Positions 44,525 to 51,368 of a stretch of DNA of 51,368 bases are shown one piece after another. Origin of the DNA: Candidatus Moraniibacteriota bacterium (GTDB lineage: Bacteria > Patescibacteriota > Minisyncoccia > JAHIHE01 > JAGLIN01); NCBI GenBank assembly GCA_030638895.1, contig DAOWDS010000027.1, positions 1-51,368 of the forward strand. The letters run 5' to 3'. Each line of letters begins with the position of its first letter. Within the stretch, counting starts at the first letter, position 1. The notes under the pieces were generated by a model. The model made no database searches. It was not told the origin of the DNA and saw nothing but the letters and a program-made list of their open reading frames with translations. Position numbers and translations under genes: made by a program.

Positions 44525-45082
44525 ATGGAAATGTATCTAATAATAATTTTGGTAGTTTTAGTTGTCCTTGGATTGTTGATAGTAATAATCTATAATGGAT
44601 TAATTAGGTTAAAAGTTAGAACAAATGAAGCATGGAGCGATATTGATGTACAGCTTAAGAGAAGATACGATTTAATTCCAAATCTGATTAATACTGTTAA
44701 GGGTTATGCAATTCATGAAAAAGAGCTTTTTGAAAATGTTACCCAAGCAAGAGCGAATGCAATGAACGCTCAAAATCCTGGAGAAAAAGGACAAACAGAA
44801 AATATGCTTACAGACGCCTTAAAAAGCCTGTTTGCGGTAAGTGAAAACTATCCGCAGCTTAGAGCCAACGAAAATTTTCTTGAACTTCAAAGAGAGCTTT
44901 CCGATACAGAGAACAAAATTCAAGCTTCAAGAAGATTTTACAACGGCAATGTTCGCGACTTGAATACAAAAATTCAAGTATTCCCAGACAGTATCGTTGC
45001 CAATATGCTGAAAATCGGGAAAAGAGAGTTTTTTGAAATTAACGAACCAAAAGAAAAAGAAACTCCAAAGGTTGAATTTTAG
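44525..45082 (+). CDS. lemA: LemA family protein
   Basis: It has an N-terminal TM helix. The LemA pattern is YN.L......V.EAWS.IDVQLKRR.DLIPNL...VKGY..HE...F..V..AR followed by ENYP.L.A...F..LQ.EL..TEN.I...R..YN. Confidence 0.9.
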   Translation: MEMYLIIILVVLVVLGLLIVIIYNGLIRLKVRTNEAWSDIDVQLKRRYDLIPNLINTVKGYAIHEKELFENVTQARANAMNAQNPGEKGQTENMLTDALKSLFAVSENYPQLRANENFLELQRELSDTENKIQASRRFYNGNVRDLNTKIQVFPDSIVANMLKIGKREFFEINEPKEKETPKVEF

Positions 45083-45112
45083 ATTATTATTATTCTGAAC
45101 AACAATAAGAAA

Positions 45113-45224
45113 TTCGTCATTTTGAGGAGGTACGACGAAGAATCCCGAGACTACTAAGCACAATTCGTATTGTTAAATTATATGAAACTTTTAACGAGAT
45201 CCTTCGCTCTGCTCAGGATGACGA
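45113..45224. repeat. TTGTCATT-family palindromic element (long form, TTCGTCATT variant)
   Basis: The arms are TTCGTCATTTTGAGGAGGTACGACGAAGAATCCCGAG and CGAGATCCTTCGCTCTGCTCAGGATGACGA. Confidence 0.7.
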
Positions 45225-45299
45225 TGGTTTGTTTCTTCAACATAAAAAGTAATTGTTATCCTGTAGCTATATACTCAAAATCTTTATAATAACACAAAA

Positions 45300-49055: not shown

Positions 49056-49123
49056 ATAATATAATAAACAATCTATATTTTTATAATGATATAAAACATT
49101 AGTTTATATTGTAAAATGTAAGC

Positions 49124-50449
49124 ATGTATATTTTTGAAGAACATAAAATTATAATTAAAAAGTTTTTATTAGTACTTATTCTTATAATTATATTAATTCT
49201 TCTCTTTTTTTTAAGTTCGTTTTTTTTAAAAAGATCAGAACCAGAGCCAACTTCAATAATCTCTGAGTTAGTTGAAAATAATGAAAATCCATATAGGTAT
49301 AGTAATAAAATAGAAGAAAAGTGTTTAGAGCTTGAAAATAGAGATGATTGTCTAGACGATATTATATTTGCGGATGCTGTTGCGTCAAAAAATGTTAAAA
49401 AGTGTTTAGAATTAAAAAATAATGAAAAAAGAAATAATTGTTTTTTTCAATTTGGTTCATCTATCATTCAAAAAGTAAAGTTTTGTGATTTTGTTAATAA
49501 TAATGAAAAAAGAAATAAATGTATTAGCAATTTAATTGAAATAAGCAAAGATATAAGTATTTGCGAGTTTTATTATAATAGCGAACCTTATTTAAGAGAA
49601 AAATGTAAAAATATCTTAATAAAAAAAGAAAGCAAGGATTTTAATGAAATAAATATTACAACAAGTGTAGATAGTGATAATGACGGAGTTGATGATATTG
49701 GGGAATTATTATTTTTTAATCTCGATTTTCGTAATCCAGATACAGATGGCGACGGATTATTAGATGGCGAAGAAATTTATATTTATAATATTAATCCACT
49801 ATTATTAGATACAGATAATGACAATTTAAATGATTATGAAGAGATAAATAATTACATAACTAATCCTAATAGACCAGACACAGATGGCGACGGAATCTCA
49901 GACGGTGATGAAATTAAAAATGGAACTAATCCTCATTCTGGAGACACTGACAAAGATGGACTTTTGGATGTTGATGAAGAAAAATTCAAAACGGATATAA
50001 ATAATCCAGACACAGATGGTGATGGAATGAGTGATTTTGAAGAAATAAGAAGCGGATTTAATCCGCTTAAACTAGGACAAGATTTATCTGATACAGACGG
50101 CGATGGTCTTCTTGATATTGATGAGATATTTTATGGGACGGATAGATTTAGTCCAGATACTGATAATGATGGAATTAATGACAAGCAAGAAACAGACGAT
50201 CTGACTAACCCATTGGGTGATGGCGATATGGATTTTGATGACGATGGAATAAGCGATAAAGAGGAAATTAAAATTGGAAGTAATCTATCTTTAGGTGACT
50301 CAGATAGCGATGGGTTAACAGATTATGAAGAAATATTTAAATACAAAACTAATCCAAATAAAAGAGACACGGACAATGATGGATATTTAGACGGAGAGGA
50401 AATTAAAAATGGATATAATCCTCTTGGTGAAGGTAAATTGAGAAAATAG
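49124..50449 (+). CDS. paralogue of the 47658 gene (TM anchor, paired-Cys repeats, thrombospondin type-3-like repeats)
   Basis: It has the same architecture and repeats such as NPDTDGDGLLDGEE, PDTDGDGISDGDE and RDTDNDGYLDGEE. Confidence 0.7.
   Translation: MYIFEEHKIIIKKFLLVLILIIILILLFFLSSFFLKRSEPEPTSIISELVENNENPYRYSNKIEEKCLELENRDDCLDDIIFADAVASKNVKKCLELKNNEKRNNCFFQFGSSIIQKVKFCDFVNNNEKRNKCISNLIEISKDISICEFYYNSEPYLREKCKNILIKKESKDFNEINITTSVDSDNDGVDDIGELLFFNLDFRNPDTDGDGLLDGEEIYIYNINPLLLDTDNDNLNDYEEINNYITNPNRPDTDGDGISDGDEIKNGTNPHSGDTDKDGLLDVDEEKFKTDINNPDTDGDGMSDFEEIRSGFNPLKLGQDLSDTDGDGLLDIDEIFYGTDRFSPDTDNDGINDKQETDDLTNPLGDGDMDFDDDGISDKEEIKIGSNLSLGDSDSDGLTDYEEIFKYKTNPNKRDTDNDGYLDGEEIKNGYNPLGEGKLRK
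49875..50070 (+). repeat. second copy of the 196-nt near-identical block
   Basis: See 48628-48823. Confidence 0.9.
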
Positions 50450-50530
50450 CTTTATATTATATAGATTTTTATACAATTTTGTTGTATAATTGTGATATAA
50501 GCCTGTTTTTTTATTAACTAAATTCGAAAT

Positions 50531-51368
50531 ATGGCAACATTATATACTCAATCAGATAGGAATACGCGTAATACTTACATCTTAATCTCGGTTTTTTTAG
50601 TCTTTGTAATCGCAGTGGGATGGGTTTTTTCTCAAGCGATGGGATCAAGTGTTATTTTATGGTTCGCGGTTATTTTTAGTATTTTGATGAGCGTTGGAAG
50701 TTATTGGTATTCAGATAAATTAGTTCTAAAAATGAGCAAAGCCAAGCTGGTTGAATTTGAAAGCAATAAAGAATTATATCGTCTTGTTGAAAATCTTTGT
50801 ATCACGGCAGGTCTTCCGCTTCCAAAAATTTACATTATAGACGATACTGCGCCTAATGCTTTTGCGACAGGACGAGATCCTGAGCATGCTGTTGTAGCAG
50901 TGACAAGCGGGCTTTTGCAAAAACTTGATAGAAGCGAATTGGAAGGAGTGATTGCTCACGAACTTTCTCATATAGGCAATCGTGATATTTTATTAGCTAC
51001 AGTCGTGGTTGTTTTGGTTGGGATTGTAGCTCTTCTTGCTGATTTTTTTATGCGTTCTTTGTTGTTTGGAGGAGGAAGAGGTAATAATAGGGGGTCAGAT
51101 TGGATAAAGATTGTCGCAATTTTACTTTCTATTCTTGCTCCTGTTTTTGCTATGCTTATTCAACTTGCAATTTCAAGAAAAAGAGAGTTTCTAGCAGATG
51201 CTGATGCGGCGCTTCTAACTCGTTACCCGGAAGGATTGGCAAGCGCTTTAAGAAAAATTTCGTCTGATTCTGAAAAACTTGAAGTTGCCAATCGCGCTAC
51301 AGCTCATCTTTATATCGCAAACCCATTCAAAAATCTTAAAGGAAAAAAAACAAGTAAAATGTTTATGA
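50531..51368 (+). CDS. htpX: protease HtpX (M48 zinc metalloprotease), 3' end beyond the window
   Basis: It is absent from the ORF track because no stop is reached. Hand translation gives MATLYTQSDRNTRNTYILISVFLVFVIAVGW...PNAFATGRDPEHAVVAVTSGLL..L...ELEGVIAHELSHIGNRDI...REFLADADAALLT. That shows the HExxH motif and the HtpX TM pattern. Confidence 0.9.
   Translation, partial: MATLYTQSDRNTRNTYILISVFLVFVIAVGWVFSQAMGSSVILWFAVIFSILMSVGSYWYSDKLVLKMSKAKLVEFESNKELYRLVENLCITAGLPLPKIYIIDDTAPNAFATGRDPEHAVVAVTSGLLQKLDRSELEGVIAHELSHIGNRDILLATVVVVLVGIVALLADFFMRSLLFGGGRGNNRGSDWIKIVAILLSILAPVFAMLIQLAISRKREFLADADAALLTRYPEGLASALRKISSDSEKLEVANRATAHLYIANPFKNLKGKKTSKMFM

Follow-up and report, generated by a model that had tools for sequence, protein, structure and literature searches.

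The pneumococcal capsule locus lies between dexB and aliA, and O-antigen gene clusters lie between galF and gnd. We describe here a locus that resembles them in a 51,368-nucleotide contig of a Candidatus Moraniibacteriota bacterium (DAOWDS010000027.1, assembly GCA_030638895.1), the whole of which is referred to below as the window. It consists of three genes for predicted surface proteins (pil778, tspA and tspB) placed between lemA and htpX. By analogy with capsule and O-antigen loci, it combines conserved flanks, non-homologous cassettes in close relatives, homology that breaks exactly at the flanks and products that are predicted to be surface-exposed. Unlike those loci, whose cargo consists of polysaccharide-synthesis genes, this one carries genes for proteins, in uncultivated bacteria of the candidate phyla radiation (CPR), and exchange is read from a comparison between species rather than observed in a population.

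The products have described counterparts as well. According to a 2025 survey of Patescibacteria T4SS (type IV secretion systems; PMC12102498), VirB2-like pilins are widespread in this group, their genes occur in arrays of 2-11 and are proposed to help the cells adapt to different hosts, and PrgB-type adhesins were not found; a term search of the paper returned no mention of large pilin-core fusions or of a lemA/htpX locus. Like the pilins described there, the product of pil778 has a signal peptide and a pair of hydrophobic helices linked by a short basic loop, and the source genome likewise possesses multiple divergent pilin paralogues, 13 in number. It differs from them in that its hairpin is buried in 778 amino acids (aa), that no virB4 gene is nearby, and that its gene is linked to genes for thrombospondin type 3 (TSP3) repeats and to lemA/htpX. 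Known bacterial TSP3-repeat proteins, including Myxococcus CglD and MtsD (NF033765 and NF047639), an OmpA-family protein (PDB 5wtl) and Bap (PDB 7c7r), are extracytoplasmic and act in adhesion or cohesion. TspA and TspB have the same runs of DxDxDGxxDxxE calcium-binding repeats, but are distinguished by a Cys-paired helical-repeat domain, a single transmembrane (TM) anchor and the absence of a VWA or OmpA domain. As for the flanks, htpX and lemA of Streptococcus pneumoniae D39 carry the consecutive locus tags SPD_1138 and SPD_1139 (PMC8546594).

Occupancy of the lemA-htpX interval

We consider the interval between lemA and htpX to be a flank-anchored, exchangeable surface-protein locus of one Patescibacteria family (of the Parcubacteria/Minisyncoccia type), carried in native chromosomal DNA, and put the probability of this reading at roughly 0.6. 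In the window, lemA (44,525-45,082; 185 aa) is the left conserved flank and htpX (50,531-51,367; open at the contig end) the right one. Between them lie pil778 (45,300-47,636; 778 aa), tspA (47,658-49,055; 465 aa) and tspB (49,124-50,449; 441 aa), and all five genes are on the forward strand. The intergenic gaps measure, in this order, 217, 21, 68 and 81 nt. Coordinates and strand of the five open reading frames (ORFs), as well as the short gaps of 21 and 68 nt inside the cassette, are exactly those of the first-pass annotation of this DNA, which had proposed that the three genes form an island wedged into a gene pair that is adjacent in many bacteria.

Both flank proteins were searched in 60 relatives, lemA-htpX gaps were computed in the informative genomes, and the loci of 20 relatives were retrieved and their ORFs mapped. 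We found lemA upstream of htpX on one strand in all informative genomes. In other families of the class, the two genes are adjacent (gap of at most 116 nt) in 17 of the 22 informative genomes, the remaining five having gaps of 431 nt (one genome), 0.8-1 kb (three) and 5.6 kb (one). Adjacency (at most 170 nt) is found in four of seven genomes from other families of the order; one of the others has a gap of 354 nt and two have inserts of 2.3 and 6.2 kb. Within the family itself, source genome included, 12 of 16 informative genomes possess inserts of 1.1-6.3 kb in this slot, three are empty (gap of at most 280 nt) and one contains an 81-aa Cys-rich TM ORF. The adjacency in 17 class genomes outside the family supports the ancestral pairing on which the island proposal was built, and shows that the genes are not permanently apart in this lineage. 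A reading of the island as an insert that is recent or private to the source genome had to be given up, as 12 of the 16 family slots are occupied and the order LemA, pilin-core protein, TSP3 protein(s) and HtpX recurs in independent metagenome contigs.

Every occupied slot of the family (12/12) encodes at least one protein with a PF18895 pilin core, and homologues of the window genes in these slots always lie on the lemA/htpX strand; at L021, one more ORF (93 aa, unassigned) runs in the other direction. Two types of module recur. In module A, a protein with a pilin core in its middle and a Cys-rich domain at its C-terminus is followed by the gene for a TM-anchored TSP3 protein. In module B, a ~210-aa single-TM protein accompanies a ~650-aa protein with an N-terminal part of the beta-propeller type (LVIVD/SBBP) and a pilin core at its end, at times with an additional pilin-core protein of 880-1030 aa. 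Both modules are present together in genome G006. Only the TM helix aligns between the ~210-aa partner of module B and the TSP3 partner of module A (hhalign), so that a relationship between these two partners is not shown.

The linkage within module A was followed in 12 distinct contexts, comprising seven homologues on metagenome contigs, three further species-genome loci, the window and G006. A peptide-pattern search of the species genomes returned four loci. By our locus numbers these are the window, L010 of G006, L034, L029/L030, L031, L032/L033, L035, L036, L037, L038, L040 and L041; L021 of G016 and L039 have the L034 arrangement, which was counted once. A TSP3 gene lies directly 3' of the pil778-type gene in 12 of 12. 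HtpX is encoded downstream wherever the contig extends that far, LemA is encoded upstream in all contexts except L036, and several contexts share the wider uvrA, groES and groEL synteny of the window. The C-terminal domain of pil778 is present in five of the 24 species genomes of the family, always as a single copy. It lies between lemA and htpX in G000, G006 and G016, just downstream of lemA in G010 and just upstream of htpX in G017, the other flank not being assembled alongside in the last two. Module A is a conserved and selected pair, and in the window its TSP3 partner is duplicated in tandem.

Different cassettes are found between near-identical flanks. When L011 (module B, 2.9 kb) was compared with L029 (module A, 5.2 kb), LemA was 96.2% and HtpX 96.0% identical and the flank DNA 88% identical, with zero DNA homology between the flanks; L014 against L031 and L018 against L035 gave a similar pattern. 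Homology between the window and L009/L011 stops 9-11 nt past the lemA stop codon (45,091-45,093) and is back 1-12 nt before the htpX ATG (50,519-50,530). Conserved flanks, non-homologous cassettes and breaks at the flank edges are together what flank-anchored cassette switching entails. In a tree built from LemA and HtpX, the empty-slot genomes form one clade (support 99/98) and the cassette types are interleaved among the rest. The simplest reading of these comparisons would be a single early occupation of the slot, followed by whole-cassette replacement through recombination in the conserved flanks. The locus has been diversified by three routes: gain and loss of Ig-like domains, duplication and conversion of the TSP3 gene, and replacement of the whole cassette. 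A separate observation concerns G024 (L019), which belongs to another family by taxonomy. Its LemA and HtpX group with those of G001 (L017) with a support of 98/97 on long branches, and both genomes carry a mid-core pilin protein and a TSP3 protein; transfer of the entire locus between families would account for the grouping, as would long-branch attraction.

The window is core chromosome, in which recA, ftsK, rpoB, rpoC, uvrA and groES/EL are also present, and it belongs to an 866-kb assembly of 60 contigs that is 87% complete. The GC content at third codon positions (GC3) is 0.16-0.19 in the cassette and 0.23 ± 0.04 in the genome, and synonymous codon choice in the cassette is more genome-typical than that of the average gene. 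The foreign composition that might have been expected of an insert was thus contradicted by codon usage and GC3, both of which are native. DNA identity to L029 is 80% over 45,792-51,368, against 81% for the flank. Relative to the two closest loci, the cassette genes have a ratio of nonsynonymous to synonymous substitution rates (dN/dS) of 0.10-0.19 and lemA/htpX one of 0.04-0.08, values that are rough because dS is near saturation (0.7-1.9). The cassette genes are under purifying selection.

Other cargo was found in the same interval. Outside the family it includes BrnT/BrnA, a nucleotidyltransferase and a PKD-domain protein (Pfam scan), and within the family AbiEii or an MNT/HEPN-like pair can accompany the cassette. 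Toxin-antitoxin or nucleotidyltransferase genes were seen in the slot at L028 1,261-1,803, L016 4,334-4,954, L027 1,352-2,170, L034 8,761-9,431 and L035 9,061-9,731; their types are a BrnT/BrnA fusion-like ORF, AbiEii, and NTP_transf_2 with NTase_sub_bind/HEPN-like, and at times they lie between the TSP3 gene and htpX. Such cargo shares slot and strand with the window cassette, but consists of one or two accessory or selfish genes in 0.4-1 kb, whereas the window has a 5.4-kb surface-protein module. The position of the surface-protein module is kept across several genera. The lemA-htpX slot is a permissive insertion site that is taken, in this family, by surface-protein cassettes. Beyond the slot, several relatives possess a second, diverged M48/HtpX-like gene (42-45% identity) just 3' of htpX (L012 7,873-8,199, L029 9,554-10,242 and L032 14,842-15,810; also G003, G011 and G001), and small TSP3-repeat ORFs are found 3' of htpX in L015, L022, L032 and L036.

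Cassette products and what they may build

The product of pil778 matches PF18895 (T4SS_pilin; T4SS, type IV secretion system) at aa 420-484 with 33.7 bits (cut-off 26.6). It contains 56 Cys (7.2%, the 99th percentile of genome ORFs) and 9.0% Asp. The signal peptide (45,300-45,404; aa 1-35) ends in ...NDAFA before L and was modelled by AlphaFold2 (AF2) with a helix at residues 9-25. It is followed by two tandem Ig/FnIII-like beta-sandwich domains (45,405-46,139; about aa 36-160 and 161-280), which have a predicted local distance difference test (pLDDT) of 70-95, and by a Cys-rich region (46,140-46,556; aa 281-419) with 21 Cys and low AF2 confidence. Next come a VirB2-like helical hairpin (46,557-46,784; aa 420-495), composed of TM1, a short basic loop (SSAGDASRVTIAKTAVIKS) and TM2, and a C-terminal Cys-rich ectodomain with 28 Cys (46,785-47,633; aa 496-778). 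All of these lie on the forward strand. The AF2 model was built from a 27-sequence alignment and has a mean pLDDT of 60; it is confident for the beta-sandwiches at about aa 40-275, places the hairpin helices at 416-451 and 456-489, and is poor elsewhere, with a pLDDT below 50 in the Cys-rich parts that define the family. As the VirB2 topology turns both hairpin termini outward, the N- and C-terminal domains are predicted to be extracellular. Family alignment reveals a conserved PCGR...W.E..C..CH motif just N-terminal of the hairpin, together with invariant Cys and Gly columns. A pre-core Cys motif (W..{4,6}C..C) is common to pil778 and two paralogues on contig C40.

A Foldseek search with the Ig-like pair retrieved RbmA as best match, followed by integrin leg domains, titin Ig and S-layer Sap domains, a range that is generic for surface proteins. 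The pair superposes on the tandem FnIII/Ig modules of Vibrio cholerae RbmA with a Foldseek E of ~1e-9, but this is a generic fold with 8-14% identity and low whole-chain template-modelling scores, and it carries no ligand information. The number of Ig-like domains varies among homologues (none, one, two or more), since they align only from aa 162, 249 or 338. Consistent with this, 45,386-45,791 is without counterpart in the closest relative L029 (blastn) and represents an Ig-domain indel. The preceding 97 nt (45,289-45,385), with the start codon and signal peptide of pil778, are 95% identical to L029, as compared with about 80% for the rest of the locus; sequences may have been joined by recombination at this point, or the 5' end may be under strong constraint. 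Close homologues of pil778 number 26 in 5.8 billion protein clusters, and their names refer only to Patescibacteria, Parcubacteria or Minisyncoccia. The C-terminal domain was found in 42 representative clusters at E<=1e-3 among 1.84 billion proteins, mostly at or near the C-terminus of the hit, and is, as far as these searches indicate, a small, lineage-restricted domain family. The pil778 family gave no match among PDB sequences. A search for VKOR in the 87%-complete genome found none, and one DsbA-like match to Thioredoxin_4 is borderline (22.9 bits; contig C41, 571-1,053).

Both downstream genes encode TSP3 repeats (PF18884, TSP3_bac; E 6e-30 for tspA and 8e-36 for tspB). Asp makes up 12.9% and 14.7% of their products, which places both beyond the 99th percentile of genome ORFs, and the DxDxD motifs number 9 and 11. 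TspA begins with a TM helix (aa 2-30), which a disordered linker connects to an alpha-helical repeat domain (aa 59-254); the TSP3 repeats come last (aa 255-465). Its AF2 model has a mean pLDDT of 82.9 and is confident in the repeat region. The helical domain has invariant Cys pairs in the family alignment and gave nothing significant in a Foldseek search against PDB; the TSP3 part matches the OmpA-family protein 5wtl, Bap 7c7r and lanmodulin-type Ca/Ln sites. TspB, the tandem paralogue, has a shorter helical domain and 11 DxDxD repeats and is 58% identical to TspA over 334 aa. Calcium binding by both is supported by their motifs. Identity with the CglD/MtsD equivalogs was rejected, as scores of 40-64 bits were obtained against cut-offs of 400 and 800 and the repeat region alone aligns. 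The duplication is not recent, since tspA and tspB are both kept in the closest relatives L029, L030 and L031. A tract of 196 nt in tspA (48,628-48,823, forward strand) differs from 49,875-50,070 in tspB at two positions (48,766 and 48,799). Within three genomes, the A and B copies of the TSP3 block are 90%, 100% and 97% identical, and between genomes 77-85%. To judge by these identities, the two genes evolve in concert through gene conversion. The view that all three cassette products are extracytoplasmic, Cys- and Asp-rich and calcium-binding holds in part: they are predicted to be extracytoplasmic and membrane-anchored and are rich in both residues, but the calcium motif is confined to the TSP3 pair and is lacking in pil778.

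What these products build was weighed against two alternatives. According to the first, the cassette serves envelope building and provides a calcium-bridged, disulfide-rich scaffold of the cell's own wall or S-layer, which would explain its place beside the membrane-maintenance genes lemA and htpX. TSP3 repeats are indeed known from wall-binding proteins of the OmpA family (5wtl) and from Bap, a protein of the biofilm matrix (7c7r), and RbmA, which the Ig-like pair matches best in fold, is a biofilm scaffold. Purifying selection and the co-orientation of window-gene homologues with lemA/htpX in 12 of 12 occupied family loci also speak for such a structure. The cassette is however dispensable: three family genomes are empty and others have non-homologous cassettes. 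The swap of entire cassettes between near-identical flanks is, moreover, more typical of interaction or specificity determinants, and Pfam and NCBIfam scans detected no peptidoglycan-binding domain. We regard a purely structural role as unlikely, if well short of negligible.

The second alternative takes pil778 as a true component of a T4SS pilus, VirB2-like and perhaps a minor or tip subunit, in which the ectodomains would be adhesins, the TSP3 proteins accessories and the VirB4-type machine encoded elsewhere. The match to PF18895 exceeds the Pfam cut-off, and together with the AF2 model it delineates a signal-peptide-like N-terminus and two hydrophobic helices joined by a short basic loop, as in a VirB2-like hairpin. 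This hairpin aligns with those of the other 12 PF18895 genes of the genome, one of which adjoins a VirB4-like AAA_10 ATPase on contig C12. The wide occurrence of VirB2-like pilins in Patescibacteria, in which no PrgB-type adhesin was found (PMC12102498), also speaks for this alternative. Size and gene context nevertheless argue against a pilus subunit. About 385 aa (signal peptide included) precede the hairpin and 283 aa follow it, which is ill-suited to a VirB2-type helical filament, whereas the canonical small pilins of the genome have 108-127 aa with at most 13 residues past the core. The sole AAA_10/VirB4-like gene is the one on C12, a different contig from that of pil778, and the homologues in relatives are tied to lemA/htpX. 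TrbL/VirB6 was searched for and not detected. Metagenome-contig neighbours with precomputed Pfam families include no T4SS family besides PF18895; species-genome neighbours were compared only with the five proteins of the window, plus a Pfam scan of ten. Because pil778 departs from pilins in size and context, we refer to it as pilin-core-anchored rather than as a pilin, and membership in a pilus appears improbable.

Several observations were made alongside. Weak matches to VirB4 (PF03135) in the window proved to be FtsK. On C12 (24,226-28,149), the VirB4-like ATPase (611 aa) adjoins a 382-aa pilin-core protein that has an N-terminal core (aa 51-111) followed by 271 aa and is the second pilin core of the genome with a long C-terminal extension. 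Contig C40 carries four pilin-core genes at 5,797-10,720, of 415, 151, 518 and 134 aa (the last being 127 aa from its first ATG), and the 518-aa product has 56 Cys. PADLOC returned zero matches for the three cassette proteins, which gives no sign of anti-phage defence.

Flanking genes, palindromic element and transcription

LemA matches PF04011 over its full length (E 1.5e-62; profile positions 1-149 of 149). It carries a TM helix at the N-terminus (hydrophobic aa 1-29) and is 70-93% identical to its counterparts in family relatives. HtpX is 79-91% identical to those of family relatives and contains an M48 zinc metalloprotease domain (PF01435, E 1e-26) with the motif HELSH. It scores 302 bits against the NF003425 equivalog (cut-off 355 bits); because the contig ends early, some 20 C-terminal residues are missing from the ORF, and the low score may be due in part to this truncation. 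In relatives, full-length orthologues of 291-312 aa are found. A continuation of htpX past the contig end (51,368) was not found elsewhere in the assembly. On the upstream side, groEL ends at 44,214 and is followed on the forward strand by a terminator-like hairpin (44,250-44,274; 9-bp stem with 6 GC pairs, then TTTTGTG), which is likely to be the upstream limit of the lemA transcription unit. Farther away in the window, the product of 1,654-2,694 (346 aa) contains a CAP (cysteine-rich secretory protein) domain and is another secreted Cys-rich protein.

Between lemA and pil778 lies an imperfect palindromic element (45,113-45,224), a 112-nt hairpin of -31 kcal/mol with a 13-bp outer stem and a U-rich stretch after it. 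Its fold goes only modestly beyond that of shuffled sequences (z = -1.8; 13 of 200 shuffles fold equally well). The element belongs to a dispersed family, GTCATYYTGAG...CTCARRATGAC, whose core motif has 26 matches in the genome and of which related copies lie at 30,797-30,919, 31,924-32,085 and 42,360-42,439. Of the 20 loci checked in relatives, 19 lack the element at the lemA junction, and the exception, L009, has copies elsewhere in the locus. Rfam gave no match at E<=0.1 over 44,200-51,368. The element may act as an attenuator or RNA hairpin. A palindrome at the left junction had been noted in the first-pass annotation; the hairpin is real, but its use as a mark of an insertion boundary was rejected, since the element is dispersed and not conserved at this position.

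In front of htpX, a conserved leader contains a promoter-like TGTATAAT (50,483-50,490, forward strand), which precedes the ATG by 40 nt. The leader block ...TTGTATAAT...CTGTTTTTTTATTAA... is common to the window, L013, L014, L017, L029 and L032, with a variant in L031, and the leader (50,450-50,530 in the window) is kept whatever gene precedes htpX. It is probably the promoter and 5' untranslated region of htpX itself. These features bear on the possibility that the position is functional, in that the cassette proteins would be targets of LemA and HtpX (HtpX could, for example, be the quality-control protease of these heavily disulfide-bonded membrane proteins) and the whole run one stress-regulated operon. 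The shared strand, the short gaps from pil778 to htpX (21, 68 and 81 nt, after 217 nt between lemA and pil778) and the absence of predicted intrinsic terminators from all four intergenic gaps are compatible with such an operon. In several relatives, the last cassette gene ends 10-40 nt from the htpX ATG, and in the five of 24 family genomes that have it the pil778-type gene is found only in the slot or beside its one assembled flank. The conserved promoter-like element suggests, on the contrary, that independent transcription of htpX is possible, and the 112-nt hairpin with its U-rich tail follows lemA. The envelope-stress (LemA/HtpX) context in which the first-pass annotation placed the cassette is conjectural. 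Since the same interval accommodates unrelated cargo as well (BrnT/BrnA, AbiEii, nucleotidyltransferases, a PKD protein), position alone is weak evidence for a functional tie to LemA/HtpX, and the slot is empty across most of the class. We therefore find a functional link of this kind quite improbable.

Finally, the three genes as a recent mobile island, inserted by site-specific or transposase-mediated means with the palindrome as its left end, are largely refuted and hardly credible: lemA and htpX are ancestrally adjacent and a palindromic repeat does stand at the left junction, but the locus lacks an integrase, transposase, tRNA and end direct repeats (no integrase, transposase or other recombinase among the window ORFs, no direct repeats at the cassette boundaries, nearest tRNA at 31,047), codon usage is native, the orthologous cassette in L029/L031 is as diverged as the flanks (80% versus 81% DNA identity), and the palindromic motif, which is dispersed over the genome, is missing at this junction in relatives. 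Recent horizontal gene transfer of an island was accordingly rejected on composition, the lack of mobility genes and orthologous conservation.

Proposed working and meaning for the family

Under our reading of the interval as an exchangeable surface-protein locus, the cassette products would work as follows. The Sec pathway would export pil778, with cleavage of the signal peptide after AFA. The hairpin would remain in the membrane and leave two parts outside the cell, the Ig-like pair with the Cys-rich stalk before it and a Cys-rich globular domain after it. Alongside it, TspA and TspB would keep the N-terminus inside and the remainder outside, where a helical-repeat domain stapled by disulfides and a TSP3 'wire' loaded with calcium would project. 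Together, the three proteins would form a surface assembly that touches the cell's own envelope or a host cell. The topology of the proteins is predicted by models, and we infer their physical pairing and a role in attachment. A role at the surface or in host contact may reasonably be deduced, which makes the interval a candidate locus for cell-surface or host specificity.

Several points weigh against this reading, beside the rough dN/dS values and the poor AF2 model of pil778 outside its Ig-like domains and hairpin. 'Host attachment' would be an analogy, because the lineage has no cultivated member or known host. The relatives sampled are one genome per species, and fragmented. The linkage of pil778 and TSP3 genes could stem from common descent of a single insertion and not from function.

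A further step would be to see the slot as a host-specificity switch of episymbionts, with pilin-core proteins of varied ectodomains as the missing adhesins of a T4SS-like or other surface apparatus. This extension is speculative, and we think it rather improbable. If it were true, each type of ectodomain (Ig-like and Cys-rich in module A, beta-propeller in module B) would work with its own single-TM partner, and a cassette swap would alter the host cell that can be bound, in analogy with tail-fibre cassettes of phages and capsule cassettes of pneumococci. If, on the other hand, the products only form an envelope scaffold, this would be an ordinary lineage-specific surface locus.

Host recognition and attachment by CPR/Patescibacteria are largely unexplained, and adhesins of the PrgB type have not been found in them (PMC12102498). 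If the VirB2-like hairpin serves CPR bacteria as an anchor of large ectodomains, counts of 'pilin' genes in their genomes would need another reading. To the question of how these bacteria recognise hosts, the locus offers a two-protein surface module, a defined replacement slot and natural variants that may be correlated with host or habitat.

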